This document shows, piece by piece, positions 2,741-64,000 of a stretch of DNA of 64,000 nt; position 1 is the stretch's first letter; each line of letters begins with the position of its first letter. The notes beneath the pieces are model-generated. The model ran no database searches and was not told where the DNA came from. It saw only the letters and a program-made list of their open reading frames with translations. The translations under genes were made by a program, and so were the position numbers. This DNA comes from Eledone cirrhosa. Lineage: Eukaryota. The stretch spans positions 110,546,001 to 110,610,000 of the forward strand of contig OZ024743.1 of assembly GCA_964016885.1 (NCBI GenBank), given 5' to 3'.

Positions 2741-2866
2741 GTAAGCAAAAGGGACATTTAATTTGTTGGTAAATAAACAAAAATAAAATGTTTATAACTG
2801 TTTACTGGAGTATAATATTCAATGATATTAAATAAATTGAAACTAATATCATTGAATATATATGTG

Positions 2867-2914
<48 letters not shown>

Positions 2915-3030
2915 TGAAACAAAATGAAAACGAAATTTCATTTCTCACTCTTAGTATGGCACTTACTTAAATGTAAGTATGCATGTATACGTACATACAT
3001 ATATGTATACAGACGTACAGTAGCATGCAC

Positions 3031-3061
<31 letters not shown>

Positions 3062-3298
3062 CATATGCATACAGGTACACATACATATATGCACGTATCA
3101 GTTTAGCGGCGCTTATTGTAACGTCGCTTTGTTCGTTTGTAAACAAACTAAACAACCTGAATTTATGCCATACGGCGTTAAGGCAACCACGTCACCTTTT
3201 TGTTCAACAATGACACAGGAACGATGTACTAGTTTCAAGGATGTACTTCATAAGGAAAGTATATACTTTCGAACGTTCAACTATCTGGCAGATGGGTA

Positions 3299-3343
3299 AA
3301 CGGTGCTGATGATAGCTAACAAGCTTGAAACTAGTACATCGTT
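3299..3343 (+). ncRNA. Minimal type-I hammerhead ribozyme, canonical core
   Basis: aacggtg-CTGATGA-t-agct(aaca)agct-t-GAA-ACTAGT-A|catcgtt. 7-bp stem I, palindromic stem III, predicted cut after 3336. Confidence 0.9.
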
Positions 3344-3770
3344 CCTGTGTCAGTGTTGAACAAAAAGGTGACGTGGTTGCCTTAACACCGTATGGCATAA
3401 ATTCAGGCTGTTCAGTTTGTTTACAAACGAACAAAGCGACGTTATAATAAGCGCCGCTAAACTAATACGTGCATATATGTATGTGTACCTGTATGCATAT
3501 GTATATATATATGTATATATATATATATATGTGCATGCTACTGTACGTCTGTATACATATATGTATGTACGTATACATGCATACTTACATTTAAGTAAGT
3601 GCCATACTAAGAGTGAGAAATGAAATTTCGTTTTCATTTTGTTTCAATTTATCGTTTTCGGTATGCCTGACCGATTTAACTCACTCAATATGCAAATTAG
3701 GCTGCTCAGCCGTTAATTTTCATAAGGAAAGTATATACTTTCGAACGTTCAACTATCTGGCAGATGGGTA

Positions 3771-3815
3771 AACGGTGCTGATGATAGCTAACAAGCTTGA
3801 AACTAGTACATCGTT
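3771..3815 (+). ncRNA. Minimal type-I hammerhead ribozyme, second identical copy
   Basis: Same sequence as 3299-3343; predicted cut after 3808. Confidence 0.9.
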
Positions 3816-4055
3816 CCTGTGTCAGTGTTGAACAAAAAGGTGACGTGGTTGCCTTAACACCGTATGGCATAAATTCAGGCTGTTCAGTTTGTTTACAAAC
3901 GAACAAAGCGACGTTATAATAAGCGCCGCTAAACTGATACGTGCATATATGTATGTGTACCTGTATGCATATGTATATATATATGTATATATATATATAT
4001 ATGTGCATGCTACTGCACGTCTGTATACATATATGTATGTACGTATACATGCATA

Positions 4056-4140
<85 letters not shown>

Positions 4141-4263
4141 CTATCTCCTGTTATTTTATTTATAATTACATATATATATATATATAACAGAATAATATAT
4201 ATATATAACAGAATATATATAAATATATATATAACAGGATAATATATATATATATATATAACA

Positions 4264-5341
4264 GAATTTAGGAAGGCCTTTGATTCTGTGGACCATTACT
4301 GCCTGATGAAGATCTTACAAGCTTATGGAATCCCCAAGAAGATAGTGGACCTGATATCACTGCTCTACACCAACACCAAAGCCCAAGTCATTATACCTGA
4401 TGGGATGACAGAGTTCTTTGAGATACTGGCTGTAGTGCTCCAGGGAGATACATTGGCTCCTTACCTTTTTATCATCGTAGTGGACTATTGTATGCGCCTT
4501 GCACTGGAGAAACACCAGGACTCTGGCTTTACTGTAGCACCGGCTCAGAGCATGAGAGTTAGGGCGAAAAAGTATCGGATGCTGAATTTGCCGACGACAT
4601 AGTTTTGGTGACAAATACAGTGAAGGAGGCAGAGGATTTGATGTGGGAGGTTGAGACTGTGTCGATGAGTGTGGGGCTGAGAATGAATGAGACTAAAACA
4701 AAATATCTGGTAGAGAATGTTGAGAAGCCAGAGGGGATCACTAATGTAGGCGGGAAGCCGCTGAAATTGGTTGAGGACTTCCTGTATTTGGGAGCGAAGA
4801 TTGGGAATACGGAGGATGATGTGGTTGAGAGGAAGAGCAAGGCCTGGGCGGCGGGCCACAGCTTGAGATCGGTGTGGAAGTCGGACCTTCGTAGAGACCT
4901 GAAAATCCGCCTCTTCATTGCTGTAGTGAAGTCTGTGCTGCTGGATGGGTCTGAGACTTGGACACTGACCAGGAAACTCACTCAGATGGTGGATGGGTGC
5001 TACACGAGAATGCTGAGGATGGCTCTGAAAACATTAATCAGTATACACTGAGGATGAAAAATTCAGAGCTGTATGGGAGCATCACAAAAGTCAGCTCAAA
5101 AGTGACACAGAGGAGACTGAGGTTAGCTGGACATGCTCACCGACATCCAGAGTTGACATTGCTCTCAGTACTCCTTTGGGAGCCCCTACATGTACGGACT
5201 AGAAGAGGAAGACCAAGGTTAACGTATGTTGATGCCCTAAGGACAGACACTGGTCTGTTGGAGATGCAAGACGTGGCAGCGATAATGAGGGACAGAGACC
5301 GCTGGAGAGAACTCGTCCATGGATCTCGGGAATTTTACCCG

Positions 5342-5343
<2 letters not shown>
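4264..5343 (+). mobile_element. 5'-truncated RTE-like LINE; frameshifted RT C-terminal half
   Basis: [26 protein letters not shown] (after a frameshift), GLRMNETKTK, EDFLYLG, GSETWTLT, RRLRLAGH, RGRPRLTYVD, DRDRWR. Confidence 0.92.
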
Positions 5344-5394
<51 letters not shown>

Positions 5395-7955: not shown

Positions 7956-8237
7956 AAAGTTCTATTTAAATTGTTGGGATACAATAAAATATTTTTATAA
8001 CTGATATAAAGCACTCAACAAGTATTTGGAGTAGATATACGATATTAATTAACTATCCTGATGTCTTCCAAAAGTAACGGTTGCATTTTGAAAGGGTACG
8101 TCAATGTTTATTTATAAAACTGGTATATATTGTATTTTGTCTGATGAAGGCATACTATAATTTAACTTGGTATCCTTGAAATATGTATAATGAAATAAAT
8201 ATGGTTTTATAAATATAGTTTCCATTTGTTAATATCG

Positions 8238-8682: not shown

Positions 8683-8875
8683 GGAACCAGTAAGACCCCG
8701 ACAGCTGAGCTCAAACCGTTTCGACGGCTAATTCTGGACGTCCAGAATTAGCCGTCGAAACGGCTTGAGCTCAGCTGTCGGGGTCTTACTGGTTCCTATT
8801 ACCCACTCTACTACCTCAAGTATTGAGTACTTTGGTGAGTTATGGTCCACCTGGTTCCTTACCACATTTCCTTCG

Positions 8876-8877
<2 letters not shown>
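8683..8877 (+). mobile_element. Family A mini fold-back
   Basis: 57-bp arms 8683-8739 and 8740-8796 with one mismatch and no loop, then the family tail and (TA)n. Confidence 0.85.
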
Positions 8878-8943
<66 letters not shown>

Positions 8944-11115: not shown

Positions 11116-12125
11116 CTAAACTCCGTTAGTTTCAGACTGCGCATCAACATGTGATATTTTTCTCCACAAAGTTCGATCACCAGCAGCAGAGTTTAAAGAG
11201 CAAAGATGAAGTCCAGTCCATAAGTTGACATTATCAACCCAAGGTTTTTCTTCTTTTACCAGCCAACCTTTTTTCCAGGACGAACCTACTAATACCACGA
11301 ATGATCTTTTTATATGACCGTATAATTTGACTAAACTTGACTTGACAATTGATGTAATTGGTCTAACCTTGGTAATGTTGAGCAGTTCACTGATACAGAT
11401 ACGGTCGCTGAGCTGCTTGCCAGTCATAAGTCTCATAGTGTGGTTTTGGAAATGTAGAGAGCTTCTGATGTGAACTTGTCGTCCAATTGACACAGTCAAG
11501 ACCATAAAACACAACTGGTAGGATGTAAGTGTCGAAGATCTTAGCCATCAAATGATAGGAAACTCGTCTTTATGTTAGTAATTCCTTGCCCTTGTTGTAA
11601 GGTGCCCAACCTAGAGTGATGCGATACTGCGCAGCAATCATTCCATAGTTGTTTGATGATGGTTTGTGACCGAGATATACTAACCACGTAATTTGAGCAA
11701 TTTGCTTCACACATTTGAAGCGAGGAAAAAGCCCTGTACTGGTAAACATATACTGAGAGTTCATCAAATCTGGAGGTGATCCAATTATCAAATCACTTCA
11801 ACATCTCCTTAACTTTATTATCACTACAGGAAAGATCCCAGACATGTTCAAGAAAGCATTGATAGTTTTACTCTACGAAAAAGGTAGCAGGCTTGATTGT
11901 GGGAACTATCGTCCTATGCTCCTCTGGCTGTCAAATAGGAGGTAAAATCCTATCAAATCTTAGCTATGCAGACGATCTGGCCATGATGAACTACTCTAGA
12001 ACTGATCTGCATGACTTTCTGAATGCACTGATCAAACATTCGTTGGAGGCTGGCATTCACATCAACATATCCAAAACAAAGTGTATGAAAATTGATAAAA
12101 ACAATGCCAATCTCCAACTCACAAT
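11116..12125 (-). mobile_element. RTE-like LINE with inverted 5' segment
   Basis: Minus 11116-~11705: VYLGHK...RITLGWA, KLYGHIKR, PWVDNV, DRTLWR. Plus ~11705-12125: LKRGKSP, GKIPDMFKKALI, GNYRP, [deletion], LSYADDL, INISKTK. Confidence 0.85.
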
Positions 12126-12150
12126 ATCTTTCTCTGTCTCGCTCTCCTTA

Positions 12151-12195
<45 letters not shown>

Positions 12196-12216
12196 ATAAT
12201 AATAAATTTGAAGACT

Positions 12217-12272
<56 letters not shown>

Positions 12273-17304: not shown

Positions 17305-17447
17305 TGAATGAGTAGGACCCCGACAGCTGAGCTCAAGCCGTTTCGACGGCTAATTCTGGACCGTACCTATTACCCACTCTACTACCCTAAGTATTGAGTA
17401 CTTTGGTGCGTTATGGTCCACCTGGTTCCTTACCACATTGCCTCATT
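17305..17447 (+). mobile_element. Family A mini element (inverted arm joined to tail)
   Basis: gagtaggaccccgacagctgagctc...ctggac followed by cctattacccactctac...accacatt. Confidence 0.8.
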
Positions 17448-18599: not shown

Positions 18600-20967
18600 A
18601 CTATGTAGAGTGTGGGAGAGTTACGTGGTAATTGGTTAAGAGAGGAAGGTTGGAAGAGTGTGTTGTATATTGGATATAGAAAGGGAGGAGGGGATTGATG
18701 TTTAATGATGTAGAGAGGAATTTGAATAGAGTTCCGTGTAGTGGATATAAAGAGGGGCAGGTTATGGCGGTAATCCACATGGAGAGGGGGAGAGTTTGGT
18801 GTAAATTGATATAGATAGGGATATTAAAGTAAGTTCCGTTTAGTAGATATAGAGAGCGGGAGGGTTTGATGATAATTGATCTATAGAGTGCCCTTCTAAG
18901 AGAGTTTCGTGTATTATATATACATAGGGGGAGATATGTTGTTAATTGATATAGAACGGGTATTAGGAGAGAGTGTTGTATGGTTTATGTAGAGAGGAGG
19001 GAGTTTGGTGGTAATGGACATATTGAGAGAATTGATATTGATAGGTATTGGTAGATATCGGTATTGTAGAGAGAGAGAGAGAGTTTCGTATTGATCGATA
19101 GAGTGAGAGGGATTGAGAGAGAGTGCTGAATGGTATATATATATAGAGAGAGAGGTGCATAGTTTGGCGGTAAGTGATGTAGTGAGGGGTTTTTTGAGAG
19201 TGTATTATATATAGTGAGGGGGAGAGTATGAGGCTCATTAATACAGAGAGGGGTATTGAAAGAGATTTCCGATAGTATATTTAGAGAGGGGGAGAGTTTG
19301 GTGCTAATTGATATAAAGAGGGGGAATGGGTACCTTGTAGTAGATGTAGAGAGGGGGAGTATGGTGTAAATTGATATAGAGAGGGGGATCGGAAAAGAGT
19401 TATGTGTAGTAGATATAGAGAGGGCGAGAGTTTGGTATAAATTGATATAGAGAGGGGATTGGAAGAGAGTTCCGTGTAGTAGATATAATAACGGGGAGAG
19501 TTTGGTAATACTTCATATAAAGAGGGAGATGGGAAGAGAGTTCCGTTTAGTAGATATAGAGAGAGTGAGCGTTTCGTATTAATTGACATAAAAGGGGGTT
19601 TGAAGAGAGGTCCGTGTAGTAGATATAGAAGAGGGGAGTATTTGGTGTTCCTTGATATACAGAGAGAGATTAGTAAAGAGTTTCGTGTAGTTGATATAAA
19701 GAAGGGGGAGAGTTTGGTGTTCCTCTATATAGAGAGTGGGAGTGGAAGATAGTTCCGTGTAGTAGATATAAAGAGGGGGGAGTTTGGTGCTAATAATATA
19801 GAGAGTGAAATTTGAAAAGCATGTTGTATGTTTGATGTAGAGAGGGGAGAGTTTTGTGGTAATGAATAGAGGGAGTGGATTGATAGAGATAGCTATTGAT
19901 AGAGAAAATGAGTGGGATAGTTTGGTAGTGATAGATAGATTGAGGGGGAATAAGAATGTGTGTAGTATGGTAGATATAGAGCGGGGATAGTTTGGTGGTA
20001 ATTAATATAGCGAGGGGTTTGGGGAGAAGTTTTTGTGCAGTAGATATAGTGTTGATTAGAGTTTGATGTTTATTGATATTGGAAGATAATTCCGTGTAGA
20101 AAATATAGAGAAGTGATAGTTTTATATTAATTGTTATAGAGAGGGGCATTGGTAGTGAGTTCCGTGTAGTAGATATAGAGATAATGAGAGAGAGTCTTGT
20201 ATGAAAGATATACAGAGGGGGATAGTTTGGTGGTAATTGATATATAGATAGGTGTGGGAGAGTGTGTTTTAGAAGGGAATTGGAAGGGAATTGGAAGATA
20301 TTTCCTCGTAATAGATATAAAGAGTAGTAGAGTGTCGTGTTATTTGATATAGAGAGGGGGATTGGAAGATAGTTCCGTGTAGTAGATATAGTGAGACTGT
20401 ATGGGTGATATAGAGAGGGGTATCGTTTAATAGTAAATGATATAGAGAACGGCGTTTGGAGAGTGAGTTTATTATTAGATACAGAGAGGTGGTTGGAAGA
20501 GAGTTCCGTGTAGTAGATATAGAGAATGGGAGAGTTTGATTTTTATTGATATAGAGAGGGGGATTAGAAGAGTTTACCATGTAGTAGATATATAGAGAAG
20601 GCTATACTATGGTGTTAATTGATATAGAGAGTGGGAAGAAAGTACTGTGTAGTAGATATAGAGAGGGCGAGGAATTGTTGGTTGTAGATATACAGAGAAG
20701 GATAATGGGAGAGTTCCGTGTATTAGATAGAGAGAGTATGAGAGTTTAGGGGAGGTTGATATACAGAGGAGTATTGGAAGAGATAAGTGTAGATGTGTAG
20801 ATATTCATAGAGAGTGAGAGAGTGTATTAGTCTTAGATATAGTGAATGGAATAAGAGACGCGGTGTCGTGGTAGGTATAGAGTGTTTGTGTTTGTTTTAG
20901 TAGATACAGAGAGGAGGATTAAAAGATAGTTTTGTGTGATAGACATAGAGCAGGGGAGAGTTTGGTT
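18600..20967. repeat. Diverged ~70-bp purine-rich tandem array (roughly 30+ units)
   Basis: The tagtagatata motif recurs at ~19407, 19477, 19548 and 19617. Unit is approximately gagagtttggtgtaaattgatatagagaggggattggaa + gagagttccgtgtagtagatatagagaggg. Confidence 0.9.
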
Positions 20968-21523: not shown

Positions 21524-21528
<5 letters not shown>

Positions 21529-21620
21529 ACTCAATACTTGAGGTAGTAGAGTGGGTAATAGGAACCAGTAAGACCCCGACAGCTGAGCTCAAGCCGTTTC
21601 GACGGCTAATTCTGGACTAA
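21524..21620 (-). mobile_element. Family A fragment in (TA)n
   Basis: aagtactcaatacttgagg...gagctcaagccgtttcgacggctaattctggactaa. Confidence 0.85.
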
Positions 21621-22244
21621 AAATATATATATATATATATATAGGTGATGAATAAATTGGGTATAATATCAGTTTCTTAACAAATGCGAAGATGTTCGAT
21701 ATATTAACGTCTTATTAAAGTACACATAGCATATGCTTTTTTTTATTTACAGTATATACTTTCACTGGCGTCGATTATATTTTCTCCCAAGCTACCAAAA
21801 CATACATCTATTTGGTTATGCGTTAAAATGTATGCACTTGTTATGCTTATCGCATATCAACATTTTTTGACCATTTTAGAGCGAAAAATAGCTAAACTAA
21901 TCATTAAAACAAAATTGCCTAAGTTTGGCCCCCGAAATACAAACATGTTTTTACCGCCCTGTTACTGGTCTCTTTTTCGATACTAATTAGGTAAACATTT
22001 TTCAAATACACTTGGATACTGTAACATATCAAGTGTAAGTATGTATGTCAAAAACAAGTAAATACAAATATAAACGGAGTAGTGTTAATGAAGGTTCATG
22101 TGTTTTTCTCGTCAAGCGAAGAGTGATTGTGCGTACATTTGCAAATTACAATAGTTGAAGAAATGAAGAAAATTTAGAATGGTTGAAACAGGAATGAATC
22201 TTGTGAATTTTCCTTTGCCTATATATCTATATTTAAACGAATAA

Positions 22245-24849: not shown

Positions 24850-25355
24850 TGAAAACAATGAAATTAAAAAAATCAAGTCATTAGAGATATACTTCACTGC
24901 TTTACGATCGTTTCTAGATGATGATAATACATTGTAGCTATACTCCGTTATTGATCTATGTAAGGTTATTTAGAAAATATCGGATAAAGAGAATATTTAC
25001 TTACATGCATATCACCAGCTGTTTTCAAAAGCTTTTGAGTGCATTTGAAAACAGCTGGTGAAATGCATGTAAGTAAATATTCTCTTTATCTGATATTTTG
25101 TAACTAACCTTACGTAGATCAATAACGGAGTATAGCTACATTGTATTATCATCATCTAGAAACGATCGTAAAGCAGTGAAGTATATCTCTAATGACTTGA
25201 TTTTTTATTTCATTGTTTAAACTTATATCATGACTCTGTTTTCCTTTTAATGTTTTATTGTTTTCCGAGATTTATCTTAACGTACAACATTTTTAACATA
25301 TGGATTACATCGAGTTCTTCATGCAGAATAGACCCCACAACTTACTGTGGATACC

Positions 25356-26775: not shown

Positions 26776-29700
26776 ATCTCTCTATATATATAACGGTAGA
26801 TGTCTGTCTGTGTGTGTGTATGATTTTTATGCATTTCCACATTTTGATGATTTTTTTTTCCAATGTGCTCCAAATTTACCAGGGCAGGTCAACGCGTAAT
26901 TATTTTTGCCAAAAGTTTCCTGCTTCTATGAAAGAAAATCGATAAAGCTAAATACATGATGTAACCCTCTCTCTTACACGCTTCATACCTCTCACTACTA
27001 CCATCAAAAATATATGAAACTACATACATGTCGCAACACTCTTTAACAGGTTCATCCTTTCCACTACTCAACTCTCAATCTTCTCTGCAACTCTCTTTAA
27101 AAAGGTTCATCACTCTCTCTACTCCTCCCTCAATCTCCTCTGCAACTCTCTTTAAAAGGTTACTGCCTCCGTCTACTACTCTATCACTATTAAAACTTAG
27201 AACAACGACACAATTCTTTTGAAGGGACGCGAGACAAACTTTGAAACCTAAGCAACACAACAACCATAGATTTACTCTCTCCGTCGCTCTTCCCTCTCTC
27301 TACAATAAATTATGCCCCCTCTCTATAATTTAACTGCTTTACTCTCTTCATGCTTCGAGGTTTAACACTAGCTTCATTCTATCCGTCGCTCTTCTTTCTA
27401 TATATAGTAGATCATGCCCCCTATTCGTTTGGGAACGCGAAAAAAACTTTGAGAAGACATCATTTCATACAACAACAAACAGTCATAACGACACTGATAC
27501 ATCAAATATCAACATTTTAAAAGCCGATAACATTAAATACATACTGCTCTCTCAACGTTACATTTTACACAGTTACATTTTACATAAAATAACAAATATT
27601 CAAAAGCAACAGATGAATGTATAAAACAACAAACTCTATGTCGCTCTTCGCTCCCTATATGACAACACTGCAGAGAGTGAAAGAATGTATATGATCAAAT
27701 GGACCGTTCCGTATATTTCCCCTCTCTATAATTTAACTGCTTTACTCTCTCTGTCGCTCTTCACTCCCTGTATGATAACACTGCAGAGAGAGAAAAATGT
27801 ATATGATCAAATGGAGCGTTCTGTATATTCCCCCTCTCTATAATTTAACTGATTTACTCACTCTGTCGCTCTTCACTCCTATATGACAACACTGCAGAGG
27901 AGCGTTCCGTAATGACATACGGCTTATCTGGGGTATTTTCAATCGGATTATTGCAAATAACAACCCGCTAAATAACACTGCATATAACAGTTTAATGCTA
28001 TAGACATATGAATCGGAATGTAACCCGTGAACTTTTTCCTGGGCAAAATTATTCGAACAGACATGACCTCATTGCCAGAGTGTTCAGACTGAAACTGTCT
28101 AAACTCATGGCTTTAATCATAAAGGTCAGGTATTTGGAGCTGTAAAATGTGAGATGTTCACCGTCGAATAGCAGGGGCGGTACATCGGTAGCAATGAAGC
28201 TTTTTGGCGCCTATTTGGTTTACCCCTACACAAACGTCACCCCGCCATCGTACAGCTTGCGGTACATTTGGAAAATGGGCAAAGTGTTTACTTTACGGAC
28301 CAAGCCGCCGCCAAGTTGGCCGCCGATCCGAAAGAGACACTCTTCAACTTTGCCAGTTCGATACATTTGCGCAAACAATTGTGTACTCCCAGGTTCCATC
28401 CTACTTTATATGGTCGAAAAACACTTGGGTGCCAAGAAATTCAGGTCAGGCTGCTGAAAGACATCCTGGTGTAAAATTTGACAGCTGTCAGCATGAGTGC
28501 TTTCATCTCCGCCTTCTTCTGCATGAAGTTGTAGACCCAAACATTTTTCAGGACATCAAAACTGTTGATGGAGAAATATGTGATACGTACCGGGAAGCCT
28601 GCTTTAGCCATGGTCTATTGAAGATGATTCGCAATGGGATTCCACTTTAGCAGAGGGCGCTTTGTTGAGATCACCTAAAGAACTAAGCGAACTCTTTGCT
28701 ATTTTGCTTCAAAAGTGTGAATTGAGTGATCCCGAACTTTATGGGTCAAGTACAGAGACTTCATGTCTCAGGACTTCCTGCGCCTGGCTCATCTGCAGTA
28801 TACTTCAGTGTAAGTTGGTTACAGCGACATTATCTTCAACACTCATTGATATCGATGACTCCCCCTCGACATGGATGGGAGTGAGTTGGCGACGTATGGC
28901 TTGCCGTCAACTGTCAGAGAGGAAGCTAACACCTTGGCCCCGGATTTGTTGCAGGAAACAGCATATGGCATCGAATCTCTTTCCCGATACTTATAGGAAA
29001 ATGAGCCCAAACTTCTGTCGGACCAAAGGTTGACCTATGTAAATATCATTGACGCGGTTCAAAATTAGACTGGGTTTTTTACTTTCTCGATGCTTCTGGG
29101 GGTACCGGAAAAAACTTATGTAACGTAATTGATTCTCGCTAAGATTCTTCAGGAGAAAAATATTGCGTTGGCCGTTGCATCGTCCGGGATCGCTGCTACT
29201 TTGCTGCTGGGAGGCAAGACAGCACATTCAAATTTTAAAATCGCCTTGGATTTAGTAAAAGCTGAGACACCAACATGCAATATCAGCAAGAGTTCACACG
29301 AAGCTCTGGTTCTCAAAAAATATTGCCTCATTGTTTGGGATGAGTGCACAATGGCACACAAGGGTGCCCTTGGTGCACTGGACATGACCCTGAAAGACAT
29401 TATGGATTCTACGGCTCCTATGGGTGCCGTAACCCTTCTGCTATCAGGGTATTTTCGGCAAACACTGCCTGTCATACCCAAAAGGACAAGAGCTGAGGAA
29501 GTGCCTGTCTTAAAGCGTCCATGTTTTGGCTCCAGGTAAAGAGTTTGTACTTGAGCACAAATATGCCTGCTTATTTGCAAGGTGACAACATGTCTGCAGC
29601 ATTTGCTCAGAATAGTTTAGCACTTGCTGAGGGAAAGGTCCTTGCGGATGACAAGGGCGGCATAGCAATCGACTCCCTGTGCAACATTGTGAGCAGCCCT

Positions 29701-30642
29701 TCTGACCTTTGGTCAGTTTTTCGTAATGTCTCATCTAACTTTATAAATATCGATTCGCTCAGCGAAAGAGCCATCCTTGCTCCGAAAAAATACCATGGTT
29801 AATTTTATTAACGAGCAGCTGATTGAGAAAATTCCCGGTAAAGAACACATCTTCAAATCTATCGACCGGACGTCAGAACCCGATGATATCGTTAATTATA
29901 AGGTTGAGTTATTAAATTCCTCGAGCCCCAGGGCTCCCACCTCACATTCTTAAGCTTAGGGTTGGCTGTCCCATTATGCTAATAAGGAACTTGCGTCCAC
30001 CAAAGCAGTGCAGCGGTACTCGCATGGTCGTCAAGTCACTGACGCCCAACTTGATTGAGGCCACCATTGTAACGTGGTGCGGGAGAGGGGTGAGTGTTTT
30101 CATTCCAAGGATGAACCTTTTCCCCTTGGCGTCAGATATCCCGTTCGATTTCCGGCGATCCCTATTTCCGGTGAGATCATGTTTTGCCATGTCCATTAAC
30201 AAGTCACAAGGGCAAACATTGTCGGTGGCGGGCTTCCATTTGGGGGAGCCATGCTTCTCCCATGGAAAAAAAAATTATGTTGCCTGTTCCAGCGTAGGCT
30301 CCCATGAGATGACACGCAATATCGTCTACAAAGAGGTGCTATAGATGTTGATGCAGGTGTTGGAGCTATGCCGTCTGGAAAACTGGTAGGGTCACCCATG
30401 GCGGACAGATGTGACACCCAGCGGCATGAGAGCCACCATCTATCAAATTTGGTCTACTAAATTCGCTATTGGAAGATTATTAACCCATCATTGATTGTCC
30501 AAAATGCTAATTGGTTCGTAACTATTAATAACCGGTTCAACTGCTTTATGCACTTAATTGATAAGCTTATGCCCCTTTCAAGCTACGTTTGTCTGTTTGT
30601 AACTTTTCATAGCAAATGAACACGCCGGGCTAAACTGCTTGT
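26776..30642 (+). mobile_element. Helitron, internally deleted and decayed
   Basis: 5' tctctctatatatataacggtagatgtctgtctg, ~113-bp internal tandem repeats at ~27634-27900, RepHel remnants, 3' end gccgggctaaactgCTTG|t (CTRR-like). Confidence 0.88.
28000..30344 (+). pseudogene. Helitron Rep-PIF1 helicase (RepHel) pseudogene
   Basis: RHDLIARVFRLK, GRYIGSNEA, LAVHLENGQ, LRLLLH, TYREAC, GGTGK, VASSGIAATLL, GKTAHS, LIVWDECTM, FRQTLPV, RAILAP, MLIRNL, FAMSINKSQGQTL, PCFSHG. Many frameshifts. Confidence 0.93.
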
Positions 30643-31104: not shown

Positions 31105-31536
31105 CGGCGATGAATTAGTTTTGCGAGGTTTTTTATATGAGATGTGTGTCGAAACAAATATTGTTATACTTGGGGAGGGTCATATTTGTGTAATATTGCC
31201 AGAATTAATAACAGAACACACTCACTGTTTGGTTGGTTTTCGCTTTTCGCTTCTGTGTCTTTTATATCGGTAATCTAATTTATTCGGTCCTCAATGTTGC
31301 CATTGACTGACCGACGGTCAAAAATAATACAGATACAATATAGAATAATACAGATACAATATACTCTATATTGTATCTGTATTATTTTTGACCGTCGGTC
31401 AGTCAATGGCAACATTGAGGACCGAATAAATTAGATTACCGAATATAAAAGACACAGAAGCGAAAAGCGAAAACCAACCAAACAGTGAGTGTGTTCTGTT
31501 ATTAATCCTGGCAATATTACACAAATATGACCCTCC

Positions 31537-31539
<3 letters not shown>
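31103..31539 (-). mobile_element. Family E fold-back element in (TA)n
   Basis: Tail 31103-31170 and near-perfect ~170-bp arms 31171-31343 and 31366-31539, with a 20-bp duplication at the centre. Decayed relative at ~34030-34140. Confidence 0.8.
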
Positions 31540-38597: not shown

Positions 38598-39043
38598 GTA
38601 AAAGTTCTATTTAAATTGTTGGGATACAACAAGCAAATATTTTCATAACTGATATAAAGCACTCAACACATATTTGGAGTAAAAATACGATATTAACAAA
38701 TGGGAACTATATTTATAAAACCATATTTATTTCATTATACATATTTCAAGGACACCAAGTTAAATGGTGTGCTTTCATCAGATAGAATATAATATAGATC
38801 AGTTTTATAAATAAATATTGACATACCCTTAAATAATGCAACCATTACTGTTGGAAGCTGCCGGATCCGGGGCTTCCAACAGTAATGGTTGCATTCTTTA
38901 AGGGTATGTCAATATTTATTTATAAAACTGATCTATATTATATTTTATCTCATAAAAGCACATCATAATTTAACTTGGTGTCCTTGAAATATGTATAATG
39001 AAATAAATATGGTTTTATAAATATAGTTTCCATTTGTTAATAT
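38598..39043 (-). mobile_element. Family I fold-back element
   Basis: Tail 38598-38689 and ~175-bp arms folding at ccggatccgg (38861-38870). Confidence 0.85.
38729..38788 (-). ncRNA. Type-I hammerhead ribozyme
   Basis: Minus attctat-CTGATGA-aagcacacca(tttaact)tggtgtcctt-GAA-ATATGTAT-A|atgaaat. Confidence 0.75.
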
Positions 39044-39044
39044 A

Positions 39045-39100
<56 letters not shown>

Positions 39101-39295
39101 AGGAAAAGAGTGAGGGCCCCGACGACTGAGTTCCGCCCGTGTCGACAGCTAGATCCGATTTTCGGATCTAGTCGAAACGGCCGAAGCTCAGCCGTCGGGT
39201 TCCTCACTCTTTTCCCATTACACACTTTACTACCCTAAGTATCGAGTACTCTGCTGCGTTATGGTCCACCTGGTATCTTACCGCACCTTCTTTGC
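39101..39295 (+). mobile_element. Family A mini fold-back (divergent subfamily)
   Basis: Arms fold at tagatccga-ttt-tcggatcta, followed by the family tail. Confidence 0.8.
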
Positions 39296-41827: not shown

Positions 41828-43466
41828 TTTATACAATTTGATATCAATTCATACTACACCTCTATTTCCCCTATCCTATTAAATAAGGCACTAATTATGG
41901 CCATGAACAATAGTGACCTAACTAGATTCCAAATTGATGTAATACTTGCGGCCCGAAAAACCATAATTACATTTAAAGATCAATTATAGACCCGCAAGGA
42001 TACGCATAACAACTTTGGCATAACTATGGGATCTAATGAAATTCATAAGAACCTATCCTCCATCAATGGTGGTTTATACCCGATGATGCACTACTCCATA
42101 TAGACTATAACAAATTTAATATAGAAAGAACTAGGAAACTATTACATAACATTTAAAAAAAATTCAACTTAAGTATCACCTTAGATAAAAACACTAAAAA
42201 CGTTAACTTCATTGATGCTACCCTTTACTTTGACACTAAAATATATACACCCTTTCATAAACCTAACGAAAAACTAATTTATGTGGATACCAAGTCTAAC
42301 CACCCTAAATCCATAGTAAACTCAATCACTAAAGGAATATCTAATAGAATCTCTAATCTATCATGTAACGAAACTATATTTAACAATAATTCCCAATACT
42401 ATAATCAGGCGTTAGTTAAATCAGGCCATAAACATGGGATCGAATTCTTACGTATAAAATCACATAGTTACAGCATTATTTCTCACAATATGGCGATGAG
42501 CAAAAATAATAAGAGTACTAGCCACTCTTACTCTAATACGAAGGGTAATATAAAACTTAACTCGCACCAAAGTAAACACCACAACAATATTATAAACAGA
42601 AATACCTCAAAAGATATTACAAAAAACAAAAGTAGAAGAACTAATACATTCTTCAATCCCCCTTTCAATCTAAACATCTCTACCAAATTGCCTAAGGCTT
42701 TCTTCTCAATCCTAGAAAAAAACTTCCCTTCTGGCCACAAATACACACACCATTAAAATAAAAACACCATTAAAATATCTTACTCTACCACACCTAACAT
42801 CGCATACCATATAGCTAGTAGTAATAAAAGGAAGATTAATAATTATTTCTAACTAATTAAAACAAAGCAGGGGGTAAACTTACAGAACAACATAATACCT
42901 ACAAACAATAGTAATAATAGTAATAACACTAATGAAATAAATAACAATTGGAACGACAACCATCATTATCCTAATGCTATCCATAGCAGCCAGACTTGTA
43001 CACAACATAATAACCGGCAAGCTAACATCCAAAATAAATGTAGCTGTAGATCAAATAGAACTTGCCCATTAGGTAATAATTGATTAATCAAAGACATCAT
43101 TTACTCTTGAACGGTCAACACAAACAACTCTTCTAAACTTATATTGGCTCTACTTCGAACTGCTTCAAGCCGAGATACAACTCGCACCTCTACTCTTTCA
43201 AAAAACACAATCTAGCCAACTCCACTTCACTATCTAGCTACATTCACTCTCTGAAAACTAGGAATAGAACATATACACTTCGATGGGAAGTAGTAGGTAG
43301 GGCTACATCGTATAAACCACCGAATACATTTTGTAACCTCTGTCTTCTAGAGACCCGTTCTATAATATTTTCGAAACTAAACCTCCTACATAAAAGGTCA
43401 GAGAAGTTTTCCTCGTGCCAGCACCACTATCGACACTCATTCCATAGCTTTAAACCTAGCCAGTAG
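41828..43466 (+). pseudogene. PLE RT + GIY-YIG polyprotein pseudogene
   Basis: FDINSYYTSI, ITMGS, GLY-DD (frameshifted), VNFIDATL, KPN..SNHP, RISNLS, FFNPPF, NTIKISYS, CSCR...CPLGNN*L, YIGSTS, CNLCLLE, CQH. Contains stops and frameshifts. Confidence 0.9.
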
Positions 43467-44806: not shown

Positions 44807-44987
44807 GCAAAAAGTATGACCCCGATGGCAGAGCCCAAGCCGTTTCGACGGCTATATATTCCGTCGAAAAGGCTTGAGCTCTGCCGTCGGGGTCATACTT
44901 TTTCCTATTTCCCACTCTACTACCCTAAGTATTGAGTACTCTGGTGCGTTATTTGTCCATCTGGTTCCTTACCACAATTCCTTTGTT
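44807..44987 (+). mobile_element. Family A mini fold-back
   Basis: gcaaaaagtatgacccc...ttcgacgg versus ccgtcgaaa...ggggtcatactttttcc, followed by the tail. Confidence 0.8.
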
Positions 44988-52993: not shown

Positions 52994-54285
52994 ATTGAAA
53001 AACAACATTACTATTATGTATGTGTCTCACGTTGAAGAGCATGAAATTGAGAAAGAAAATAAGAGAACATTAGTGATAAGAAAACACTATGATTATTGAC
53101 AAAGTTCGGACAGTTCCGTATCCTATCTGCAGAGAAGAAGTTAGTGTAAACGCTCAATAAATGCAATCGTTTAGAAAATAAACACTATCAATCGGGTATG
53201 CTTTTCAGTATAATTGCAATTCATCGTTCGTTTCCGATTGACTGAATATAAGCACATTGATGATGATGTGTGCGGTGGTTTAAGTTTTACTCTAAACATA
53301 CAATTGATTCAGGTAGCTGCAAAAGCGACGGTCGTCTAGTCTGTAGCGCGTGAAAAATAACATCGTTACCGTCTGAGAGTCTCGATTATATGAACATAGA
53401 CCTAGCTGTAGTAACATAAATAGAAAGACTATATTGTTTATTTTGTTTCTTCCTTGTACTTGTTGATTCTTATACTTTATATCTTCACCATCACCACTAA
53501 CAAAATTACCACCATTACATCCAGTAACAACAACTTCGTTTAATTGAGTGATATTGAACGTCTGTAGACGCCATTAACATTGAGAGAAAGAAAATATAAG
53601 GCAGCAAATTGTTATGCAAATAATGAAACAGAATAGCCGAAAGTAAAAATGAAACTAAATCAGTCAAAATCCTACATCGCTCATATGCATTATGGGATAG
53701 AATGACAGACCTTCAATTCGTTGTATGCTTTCCTTTCAATACTCTAGCTTTTATTTTATATGTATTTATTGAAAGATTTGTTTTGCTTCGCTAACGGTTA
53801 CAAACAACAAAAACATGACAGATAAAACATTCAGAAATATGTATTAGGTATTAATGTTCTACACACATGGTCACTGATATATAAATTCTGACACATTGAG
53901 AGTTGCGTATAAACGAACGTTTATATATTTATGGTTTATATGTGTATATTTTCCTTTTCCATCATATACAAAGCAATAGACAATATAAGCACATATAGAC
54001 TCATATTAAATGAATTTCGAATATGTATACATTAATAATTAAACACACACCTCACATTCGTATGTTTTCAAAACATGAAAATATATGTAGTTTATACATT
54101 TTGTGAATACAACAAATATTTAGCCGTCATATATATATATAGGTGTGTGTATGTGTCAGTGTGTGTATGCGTGTGTGGCTGTGCTTCTGTGTATCTGTGT
54201 GTGAGTGTCTGCATGTATAAACATACATATATTTGTATATATATTTATATGCATATATATATATATATATATATATCTATATATA

Positions 54286-54423
54286 GGAACGAGTAGGACC
54301 CCGACGGCTGAGCTCAAGCCGTTTCGACGGCTAATTCTGGACTAAATTTAGTCCAGAAGTACCCTAAGTATTGAGTACGTTGGTGCGTTATGATCCATCT
54401 GGTTCCTTACCACATTTCCTTCG

Positions 54424-54425
<2 letters not shown>
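54286..54425 (+). mobile_element. Family A mini element
   Basis: ggaacgagtaggacccc...ctggactaaa-tttagtccag followed by a truncated tail. Confidence 0.85.
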
Positions 54426-56502: not shown

Positions 56503-56726
56503 ATATATATGTACATATATATGTATATATATATATGTATGTATATATATATATATATATGTGTGTGTATATATATATGTACATATATATGTATATATAT
56601 ATATTTATATATATATATAAATAAATGTATATATAGTGTATTTTGCAATACACTTTATGCTCAATTAAAAGCATTTTGAAGACCGTATGCTATTATTTTA
56701 GTGTAGTGACAGACTCACCTACTTTA

Positions 56727-56821
56727 ATCTCAGCAAACAGGGGGAGATAAAGCCGACAAGGCGTTGTTTCTGCATTTGTTAATGCTTATCAAGGCCACTA
56801 CTCCCTCCCGTCTGCTGAGAT
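56727..56821 (-). ncRNA. Type-I hammerhead with U3-A8 core and extended helix I
   Basis: Minus gcc-TTGATAA-gcatt(aaca)aatgc-a-GAA-ACAA(cgcc)TTGT-C|ggc, enclosed by atctcagcagacggg...gggag / ctccccctgtttgctgagat. Confidence 0.8.
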
Positions 56822-57282
56822 CACAGATGTTATATTCTTAATGAATTCTAGTAAATAATCAGGACCTGATTATACAGAGCGGTTGCCGGTCAAGCAGAAA
56901 CTAAAAAATTAGAATAGGAGCTCTGAAATAGCCATATATATATGAATGTATATATAGTGTATTTTGCAATACACGTTATGCTTAATTAAAAGCATTTTGA
57001 AGACAAATGCAGAAACAAGGTCTTGTCGGCTTTATCTCCCCCTGTTTGCTGAGATTAAAATAAGTGAGTCTGTCACTACTCTAAAACAATAGCATACGGT
57101 CTTCAAAATGATTTTAATTAAGCATAAAGTGTATTGCAAAATACACTATATATACATTCATATATATATATGGCTATTTCAGAGCTCCAATTCTAATTTT
57201 TTATTTCTGTTTGACCGGCAACCGCTCTGTATAATCAGTAACTGATTATTTACTAGTATTCTATAAGAATATAACATCAGTG

Positions 57283-57377
57283 ATCTCAGCAGACGGTAGG
57301 GAGTAGTTGGCCTTGATAACCATCAACAAATGCAGAAACAAGGCTCGTCGGCTTTATCTCCCCCTGTTTGCTGAGAT
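57283..57377 (+). ncRNA. Second family F hammerhead (stems II and III partly mutated)
   Basis: gcc-TTGATAA-ccatcaacaaatgca-GAAA-caaggctcGTC-ggc within the same long helix I. Confidence 0.65.
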
Positions 57378-57510
57378 TAAAGTAAGTCAGTCTGTCACTA
57401 CTCTAAAACAATAGCATACGGTCTTCAAAATGCTTTTAATTAAGCATAAAGTGTATTGCAAAATACACTATATATACATTCATATATATATGGCTATTTC
57501 AAATCTCCAA

Positions 57511-57554
<44 letters not shown>

Positions 57555-58126: not shown

Positions 58127-60130
<2,004 letters not shown>

Positions 60131-61166: not shown

Positions 61167-61236
<70 letters not shown>

Positions 61237-61242
61237 GGGAAA

Positions 61243-61449
61243 CCTGATATGATGCCTAAAAAACAGTTGTGAGCAAGGAAGTTTCCAGTCAACATATGAT
61301 AAATAAATTTAAAAGGATATAGAAGATTGGAAAATAGGAAGGAAGGGGAAAAAAGTAAGGAAGAGGAAAAAAGGAAAAAGAAAAAAAGGAAAAAGAAGGA
61401 GATGATAACGGAGGAAGAATATAAGAAGGAAGGAGGAGAGAAAAAGAGA

Positions 61450-61530
<81 letters not shown>

Positions 61531-61580
61531 ACTGGAAACGCTGTCACAACTGAAAAGTAATAACTGAATAACGGCTATAA
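61243..61580. repeat. Near-identical direct copy of 58295-58697 (Naiad 3' UTR/pLTR segment)
   Basis: cctgatatgatgcctaaaaaacag...(GA)n...ctgaataacggct is shared; mainly the (GA)n length differs. Confidence 0.9.
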
Positions 61581-61592
61581 ATATATATGTAT

Positions 61593-62817: not shown

Positions 62818-63070
62818 TATTTTCTTCTGTTCGTGTTATAACTACTTGTGCACAGAGGGTGGGATTGGCTCAGTGCACAGTATTTTCTTCTTTTCGTGTT
62901 ATAACTACTTGTGCACAGAGGGTGGGATTGGCTCAGTGCACAGTATTTTCTTCTTTTCGTGTTATAACTACTTGTGCACAGAGGGTGGGATTGGCTCAGT
63001 GCACAGTATTTTCTTCTTTTCGTGTTATAACTACTTGTGCACAGAGGGTGGGATTGGCTCAGTGCACAAT
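62818..63070. repeat. Four near-identical 63-bp tandem units
   Basis: tattttcttcttttcgtgttataactacttgtgcacagagggtgggattggctcagtgcacag, four times. Confidence 0.95.
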
Positions 63071-63202
63071 ATTTCCTCACTTTAAGAAATATATTCACGT
63101 ACAGGCATTGCACGATATAATTAATTAATAATTATTAATAGTGTTATATCGTGCAATGACCATACTCGATAACGAAGGGGCAGCCTTCATGTAAGTATGT
63201 AT

Positions 63203-64000
63203 ACCTGGCCGTCCTATTGTTTCTCCGTGCAACTGCTCCACCGAGATAATTTCTGAATAATTAGACACCATCCTCATCCCATTGGTCGGCAATCTCCCTC
63301 CCACATCCACGATACATATCATGCCCTTAGACTTTTCAAGCTCTTTTCCTTCCCTCTTGGTCCCTCCCACCTTCTCTTTACCCTGGACATCAACTCGCTC
63401 TATACCCTCATTCCTCATGATGGCGGCCTGCGCGCTCTCCAACACTTTTTAGATTTACCCCTTACCCCAGCACTACCACTTTTTTCCGCCTGGCTGAGCT
63501 TGTTCTCACACTAAATGGCTCTTCTTTTTCGGATGAATTTTATCAGCAGGTCTCTGGGGTAGCGATGGGAAGCAGAAAGGGTCCAAATTATGCCACCTCG
63601 TTTCTTGGCTACGTCGAAACCAGATCTTCTCCCAGTATGCCGGACCGACTCCTGAGTTACACGGTGGCTATATCGACGACTGCATCGGCGCCACCATTCT
63701 ATCACGAGAACAGCTCGACTGTTTTCTTTCTGTTGTCCTATCTTTCCACCCTGCTCTCACATTCACCGCCTCCGTCTCCGATTCTTCTGTCGCTTTTCTA
63801 GATATATCTCTATCTATTAATCAATCTGACCACACCCTCTCTACTTCCATCTTTATTAAACCAACAGACTCCCAATCTTACCTCAACTTCATCTCCTCCC
63901 ATCCAACCCACACCAAACACTCCATACCCTATTCCCAATTCCTCCTTCTTCGTCGGCTATGTAGCCAGGACGTCGATTACGAAACCCATTCCCTTCGCAT
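63203..64000 (+). pseudogene. Neptune-type PLE reverse transcriptase, frameshifted, runs off the window
   Basis: PGRPIVS, FTLDINSLYT.IPH, GVAMGS..GPNYA, YIDDCIG, AFLDI, KPTDS..YL...SSHP, SIPYSQFL.LRRLCS. Confidence 0.9.

Follow-up and report, generated by a model that had tools for sequence, protein, structure and literature searches.

A non-coding insertion of 1.15 kb lies in a TA microsatellite of the DNA analysed here (the window, a stretch of 64,000 nt), and consists of 1.7 head-to-tail copies of a 472-base unit together with an inverted partial copy. Judged by its sequence, the element fits the definition of a non-LTR retrozyme: two consecutive units, the second amounting to 0.72 of a period, carry an intact type I hammerhead core; the unit is short, low in GC (472 nt, 35%), arranged head-to-tail and non-coding, with no LTR, PBS or ORF; and it belongs to a multicopy family that is not tied to an ORF in the public contigs compared, which are short and were compared with one tract skipped. 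An earlier note on this DNA had proposed a non-autonomous, retrozyme-like unit inserted into (TA)n in the manner of Penelope, and both the layout of the insertion and the contig family bear this out; we regard a non-autonomous retrozyme mobilised by the enzymes of Penelope-like elements (PLEs) as very probable. We also lean slightly towards the full chain of events, in which the locus would be a dispersed copy of a non-LTR retrozyme, inserted by PLE enzymes from an RNA predicted to have cut itself and been circularised.

The features of the locus, in positions of the window, are:

2856..2910, no strand: (TA)n target microsatellite, left flank (from the sequence)
2909..3239, minus strand: inverted 5'-truncated copy, corresponding to unit positions 3324-3652, its 3' end entering (TA)n
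3240..3246, no strand: 7-nt junction filler, same as 3223-3229 (read directly from the sequence)
3247..3718, plus strand: direct copy 1, one full 472-nt period, 35% GC (repeat comparison)
3296..3346, plus strand: hammerhead 1 (descriptor scan, folding and literature comparison)
3337..3808, plus strand: predicted self-excised monomer, 472 nt (prediction)
3457..3590, plus strand: internal TA-rich degenerate tract, folding into a long hairpin (repeat scan and folding)
3588..3652, plus strand: tail-like segment of ~65 nt between both observed 3' ends, with a T-rich run at its end (repeat comparison and contigs)
3719..4059, plus strand: direct copy 2, partial (0.72 unit), its 3' end entering (TA)n (repeat comparison)
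3768..3818, plus strand: hammerhead 2, same sequence as hammerhead 1, predicted cut after 3808 (descriptor scan)
4058..4136, no strand: (TA)n target microsatellite, right flank (from the sequence)

As the earlier note had described, two hammerheads stand in tandem within near-identical direct repeats: 3247-3587 recurs as 3719-4059 at a period of 472, with 2 substitutions in 341 nt (3464 A/3936 G; 3544 T/4016 C), and the two cores start at 3306 and 3778. The upstream inverted arm was likewise recovered, 2909-3239 corresponding in reverse complement to 3324-3652; over 331 columns it differs from copy 1 by 6 substitutions and an indel of 2 nt. The arm is without CUGAUGA because its start falls within stem II of the hammerhead. 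The filler at 3240-3246, which links the arm head-to-head with direct copy 1, is the reverse complement of 3334-3340, a segment spanning the predicted cut, and we infer that it originated by a template switch. Both outer ends of the insertion enter (TA)n, and no target-site duplication is distinguishable inside these flanks. Position 3247 is likely to be merely the 5' truncation point of the present locus and not a boundary of the unit. Private changes number 1 in each of the direct copies and 6 in the inverted arm; this share of 6/8 has a p value of 0.02 for that arm and about 0.06 for any arm, a hint of either a different template for the arm or a homogenisation of the direct copies. The TA-rich hairpin at 3457-3590, which lies ~120-180 nt past the cut, may, speculatively, be captured and decayed target microsatellite; if so, the unit would be derived from the 3' end of a PLE plus flanking DNA.

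The absence of coding capacity, also claimed before, was confirmed. Of the 140 frames scanned, 7 overlap the element, and these gave no Pfam match; the ATG-started frames on the circularised unit reach at most 48 aa on the plus strand and 95 aa on the minus strand, and they cross the TA-rich tract. There is no credible coding frame in the element. Nor is it an autonomous PLE: in contrast to such elements, no RT or GIY-YIG frame lies between the repeats, whose spacer is 68 nt (3651-3718) and not an ORF. The 64-kb window yielded no tRNA gene, and no internal promoter was identified in the element; an A-box-like match at 3286 is loose and is not followed by a B-box on the same strand. A sigma-70 scan of the element stayed at chance level, this consensus being irrelevant here, and no host exon was recognised among the 275 of 627 window frames scanned, from which low-complexity frames had been dropped.

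Both hammerheads are of type I and have the same sequence. In hammerhead 1, stem I pairs 3300-3305 with 3337-3342 and includes one G·U, a seventh pair (3299/3343) being possible; CUGAUGA occupies 3306-3312, GAAA 3327-3330 and the palindrome ACUAGU 3330-3335, and the cleavage site is GUA. Stem II has 4 pairs and the loop AACA in both hammerheads, and internal loop 1, read by eye with a 6-pair stem I, is GUAA:UCCU. The palindromic stem III (ACTAGT in the DNA) and the cuts predicted after 3336 and 3808 agree with the earlier note. Scanning the window with the hammerhead descriptor yielded 6 cores, whereas 100 block-wise dinucleotide shuffles contained 0.02 on average and never more than 1. The same note had called these ribozymes identical and canonical: identical they are, but not canonical at every position, as positions 10.1/11.1 at the base of stem II form a U·U instead of the canonical G10.1-C11.1. 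Rfam gave no match at the gathering score. The only hammerhead match of the element below that threshold is Hammerhead_HH9 (18.5 bits, E 0.23; cut-off 52). Rfam microRNA matches (mir-297 and others) fell below the gathering score and were rejected, being caused by the TA-rich hairpin. No match was obtained when metagenome and viral contigs were scanned with a hammerhead pattern.

The earlier note had also drawn on minimal PLE hammerheads, a comparison that the sequence of the ribozyme does not bear out. The minimal hammerhead of PLEs has a long stem II (7-8 bp), a short stem I and an extra base between 9 and 10.1 (PMC4209133), whereas the present one has a stem II of 4 bp, a stem I of 6-7 bp and Schistosoma-like loops. 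In the Schistosoma hammerhead the internal loop is UCCA:GUAC and loops 2 follow RNnA (PMC2632901); in the tertiary motif, loop 1 has a 5' U and an extrahelical pyrimidine. By eye, AACA fits RNnA and UCCU fits the loop 1 motif, with an A at 3299 where a pyrimidine is expected. Because GUAA:UCCU and AACA resemble the Schistosoma loop and the RNnA motif, we assign the ribozyme, from its sequence, to the tertiary-contact type of Schistosoma and amphibian retrozymes and not to the long-stem-II minimal type of PLEs. Three features that weaken the ribozyme come together in it: stem III has a single pair, stem II has the U·U at its base, and a purine occupies a tertiary-contact position. Of these, the single-pair palindromic stem III has a precedent in axolotl HHR_Amex1 and the U·U in HHR_Amex2; axolotl retrozymes with such a stem III or U·U cleave better as dimers and give circles (PMC7229834). 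Unlike in the axolotl, both weak features are found here in one ribozyme.

The repeat family was followed in 4 of 24 listed public runs by comparison with one 472-nt period, the TA tract being skipped. Three of them (X1, X8 and X4) are contig runs, with contigs mostly 60-120 nt long; a sample of 12,836,656 raw Hi-C reads of the fourth (X24), about 1 in 100 of that run, gave 0 matches and carries no weight. In run X1, 4812 of 17,142,217 contigs match the unit, with a summed depth of 1.6e5-2.0e6 in the 24 of 30 bins covered. By identity to the window copy these fall into 1261 contigs at 99% or more, 1751 at 95-99%, 1589 at 90-95% and 211 below, that is, 1800/4812 are less than 95% alike and 3551/4812 less than 99%. 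The unit stands as a retrozyme-like repeat, and the "young" attached to it in the earlier note does not hold uniformly for a family in which so many contigs are below 95%. From these matches we infer that the family is likely large, varied and high in copy number, with thousands of copies, summed depth being no copy number in itself.

The joint 3718 -> 3247 is present in 3/3 contig runs (15 contigs in X1, 1 in X8 and 1 in X4), 3650/3651 is also read through by contigs, and in X4 a single contig of 470 nt spans all of the unit apart from the skipped TA tract, at an even depth of 7.1. The share of contigs continuing into unlike sequence is 0, 0.01 and 0 in the three runs. Since the main path closes on itself and practically nothing continues into other sequence, the tandem appears to be real and most copies appear to have no attached ORF; the unit is likely to be non-autonomous and not an assembly artefact. 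The two objections that the earlier note had raised against itself, an assembly artefact and a constant linkage to an ORF, were thus answered in its favour by the head-to-tail joint and by the lack of an ORF-linked majority among the contigs. With short contigs and the TA tract left out of the comparison, a minority of ORF-linked copies is possible. At 3633, 33 contigs of X1 and 3 of X8 have loose ends that lead into T-rich or TA sequence and match the 3' end of the inverted arm; the joints listed from contigs did not include the locus-specific inversion junction. Depth peaks at 3311-3374 and 3599-3646 were considered as common 5' and 3' ends and set aside, as graph branching could also produce them, and run X8, a small contig set without a library label, was discarded as evidence of expression.

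The contigs also suggest that the ribozyme is conserved in the family, because a variant present in 28 contigs, changed at N7, in loop 2 and in loop 1 (to a pyrimidine), keeps CUGA-GA, and because position 3299 has T instead of A in 52 contigs of X1, about a third of its summed depth. No variants of at least 5% were listed at 3300-3392 in the contig comparison.

Some further observations were made on the distribution of the unit. A 466-nt form, without 6 nt at 3444, occurs in contigs of X1, X8 and X4, while the three segments of the locus are all of the longer form. Twelve runs, under nine organism labels, contain at least half of the unit's words; eight further listed rows, with a smaller share of these words, were left out. 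No RNA run is among those listed, which has no bearing on expression. Run X4, the only one compared under a different organism label, has a single contig with 1 other letter and the 6-nt gap at depth 7.1, and a second run from the same sample and organism as X11 contains none of the unit's words. For this presence across organisms, library carry-over of a very abundant repeat seems likelier than horizontal transfer.

The layout of the insertion, as read from the sequence, is a PLE signature: a partial tandem, an inverted truncated arm, two alternative 3' ends and a TA target. Hallmarks of PLEs are a partial tandem, a copy in inverted orientation with a truncated 5' end, and a tail on one side, and (TA)n is a preferred target of Naiad PLEs (PMC8557442). 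The enzyme of an anole PLE cuts both strands of AT-rich DNA and extends both, and it initiates reverse transcription at two sites within the RNA, by which the tail is defined (PMC11167929). The two 3' ends observed here are ~65 nt apart, against a tail of 30-40 in PLEs; the second end could reflect another site of initiation or a deletion that later extended into (TA)n. An autonomous partner was sought among 10 other elements of the window, and no match to the unit rose above shuffles (4/100 shuffles scored as high as the best); the PLE remnants of the window share no sequence with the hammerhead unit in this comparison.

We propose the following mechanism. The family is abundant and arranged head-to-tail, as observed. 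Source copies would be transcribed as multimers, in which two hammerheads would pair via ACUAGU and cut, and a host ligase would close the monomer; comparable circles of coral, mussel and axolotl repeats are closed by an RtcB-type ligase. The PLE endonuclease would cut both (TA)n strands and the reverse transcriptase would start inside the RNA at ~3587 and ~3652. The cDNA from ~3587 would extend over 812 nt and pass twice across the cut site, that from ~3652 would extend over 329 nt and stop 13 nt past the cut, and the two would be joined head-to-head. As both cDNAs cross the predicted cut site, their template would have been a circle or an uncut multimer, and a cut linear monomer could not have served. 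We favour the circle because the ribozyme is kept, the direct copies are unusually alike and comparable repeats give circles, which are abundant for the coral, mussel and axolotl repeats (mussel/coral work; axolotl PMC7229834). A more specific proposal, that the insertions record rolling-circle reverse transcription by a PLE enzyme, with a 472-nt circle copied for more than one round from two fixed (TA)n-primed start sites, is put forward tentatively, as we think it somewhat unlikely in this form; if true, it would provide the first structural evidence found for animal ribozyme circles as PLE transposition intermediates.

Folding bears on whether a monomer would be released, and from where. 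The monomer 3337-3808 has a linear MFE of -158.2 kcal/mol (z -10.7), which comes partly from the TA-rich hairpin, and is 67% paired as a circle. With two 45-nt strands the double hammerhead reaches -20.8 kcal/mol, against -19.0 for two monomers and -21.7 for the dimer minimum, and the inner three pairs of stem I have a probability of 0.18-0.28. In a transcript of 3247-3870 the double-hammerhead fold costs 13.4 kcal/mol relative to the ensemble at 37 C, and in one that includes the inverted arm it costs 102 kcal/mol, with hammerhead 1 paired to the arm at a probability of about 1; the model ignores tertiary energy in both cases. The active double fold would therefore, on these models, be possible and not favoured in the context of the locus. 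The earlier note had expected both a dsRNA of ~330 bp and double cleavage; because the arm sequesters hammerhead 1, the two are predicted to be mutually exclusive in one transcript, which weakens this expectation. Excision of 3337-3808 at this locus would require a transcript starting downstream of the arm, since hammerhead 1 would otherwise pair with it, and upon read-through from upstream the locus is predicted to be a poor source of monomer because the arm would trap hammerhead 1. We doubt that the present locus itself would release 3337-3808 in vivo. Among the dimer retrozymes of Xenopus, 1/9 cleaved in vitro (10.64898/2026.07.22.740005), and in the anole PLE the hammerhead needed protein for cutting and was dispensable for insertion, uncut RNA being the main template (PMC11167929).

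These last reports bear on the alternative that the same family, non-autonomous and PLE-mobilised, has as its template uncut multimers transcribed from source loci in tandem, with weak or no cutting and no stable circle. Such a template explains equally well that both cDNAs cross the predicted cut site and agrees with the weak prediction for the active fold, with unprocessed RNA as the dominant substrate of the anole PLE (PMC11167929) and with the 8/9 Xenopus dimers without cleavage (10.64898/2026.07.22.740005). However, the core letters and the tertiary-contact loops are kept across the family variants, comparable repeats of axolotl, mussel and coral give abundant circles, and the direct copies differ at 2/341 nt whereas 3551/4812 contigs are less than 99% alike, a closeness that fits one template copied twice or, equally, a homogeneous source array. 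On balance we consider an uncut template unlikely, though it deserves to be taken seriously.

An origin of the element as the pLTR, or terminal repeat, of an autonomous PLE, remaining after a 5'-truncated insertion and with no independent life, is improbable. Although the architecture of the element is that of PLEs (PMC8557442), hammerheads are known in pLTRs (PMC4209133) and short contigs with a skipped tract could conceal a junction with an ORF, the repeats are only those 68 nt apart, with no ORF there, and the main contig path is self-closing, with 0-1% continuing into unlike sequence. Moreover, the four other scored hammerheads of the window, long in stem II, stop 38-50 nt short of (TA)n, in contrast to the present element, whose ends are about 250 and 316 nt beyond the cut. 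A local duplication of one monomer at the DNA level, or an assembly error in a (TA)n-rich region, could in principle have produced the tandem and inverted layout, as the region is rich in microsatellites, such structures trouble assemblies (PMC8557442) and the inversion junction is absent among the contig joints listed; yet private changes are present in all three segments (1, 1 and 6), the head-to-tail joint recurs in the contigs of all three contig runs, and the same window has no fewer than five further fold-back inserts, unrelated in sequence, within or next to (TA)n, which makes this origin highly improbable.

The preferred reading, that of a non-autonomous retrozyme mobilised by PLE enzymes, places the element in a kind already described, and it is likely a further member of the known animal retrozymes. 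It resembles animal non-LTR retrozymes (PMC7229834; 10.64898/2026.07.22.740005) in its head-to-tail non-coding unit with a type I hammerhead per copy, a GC content below 45%, a high copy number and a strongly self-paired predicted monomer. The definition given in the preprint, two consecutive units with complete hammerheads, applies in spirit, the second unit being partial here (10.64898/2026.07.22.740005). The unit of 472 nt is above the 150-450 bp of PMC7229834 and within the 51-972 bp of 10.64898/2026.07.22.740005. What sets it apart from these retrozymes is its position in (TA)n with an inverted 5' arm; word searches of the main texts of these two sources, and the papers listed by a wider search of the open literature, showed no such arrangement for a retrozyme.

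With PLE insertions (PMC8557442, PMC11167929, PMC4209133) the element shares the partial tandem, the adjoining inverted 5'-truncated copy and the differing 3' ends, as well as an AT-rich or microsatellite target and a hammerhead with a palindromic stem III (PMC4209133, PMC8557442). Non-autonomous Chlamys elements such as MRC1 are likewise non-coding PLE passengers that form pLTRs and are multicopy and head-to-tail (PMC8557442). They differ in that the Naiad/Chlamys group is without canonical hammerheads, and in that similarity to an autonomous family has been shown for MRC1-type elements and not for the present unit (PMC8557442).

A PLE origin of animal retrozymes has already been argued from shared hammerheads, co-occurrence and pLTR homology, the mechanism being still to be shown (PMC7229834; 10.64898/2026.07.22.740005). 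The element bears on what mobilises animal retrozymes and on whether their circles serve as the template. Here a retrozyme-type unit directly carries the footprint of a PLE insertion, which constitutes genomic evidence linking retrozymes to the Penelope machinery. As the family is large, end positions and within-locus identity can be used to test circle against uncut-multimer templates computationally. Moreover, the inverted arm left by a PLE insertion would, according to the folding models, silence the ribozyme pair on read-through and yield a dsRNA of ~330 bp.

Other elements populate the window. Further type I hammerheads with a long stem II are located at 8141(+), 10041(-), 41519(+) and 58280(-), and all four are 38-50 nt upstream of (TA)n, like PLE 3' ends; by eye, the long-stem-II hammerheads of the window form about three families. 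Those at 38781(-) and 54614(+) were recognised by core pattern only. A GIY-YIG-like frame (atlas score 0.95; no Pfam match) lies in 58182-60031 (-), with a hammerhead and (TA)n ~1.1 kb downstream; this element is likely a 5'-truncated PLE, and its 3' part recurs at 61231-61587. Broken frames at 41900-43400 (+) and 63421-63800 (+), with no Pfam match, resemble by their motifs a PLE RT/endonuclease.

A second non-coding (TA)n family is represented at 458-1797, with inverted arms of 417 nt and two alternative ends ~82 nt apart, and by fragments at 1926-2681, 8683-8939, 17306-17443, 21525-21621, 39099-39294, 44809-44986 and 54278-54424. The descriptor found no hammerhead in this family, which has the appearance of a further PLE-type passenger. 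More fold-back (head-to-head) inserts, within or next to (TA)n, are located at 24853-25218, 31172-31538, 38687-39046 and 56621-57513, the last of which has a partial tandem too.

Fragments of LINE-type reverse transcriptase (RVT_1) occur at 4243-5345 (+) and 11869-12267 (+); the former starts ~185 nt to the right of the hammerhead element and is unrelated to it. Broken PIF1 helicase frames at 28200-30340 (+) are likely a Helitron remnant. A degenerate 71-bp tandem array with a strong GC skew spans 19200-20783, and a near-perfect 63-bp tandem of 4.1 copies spans 62818-63074.
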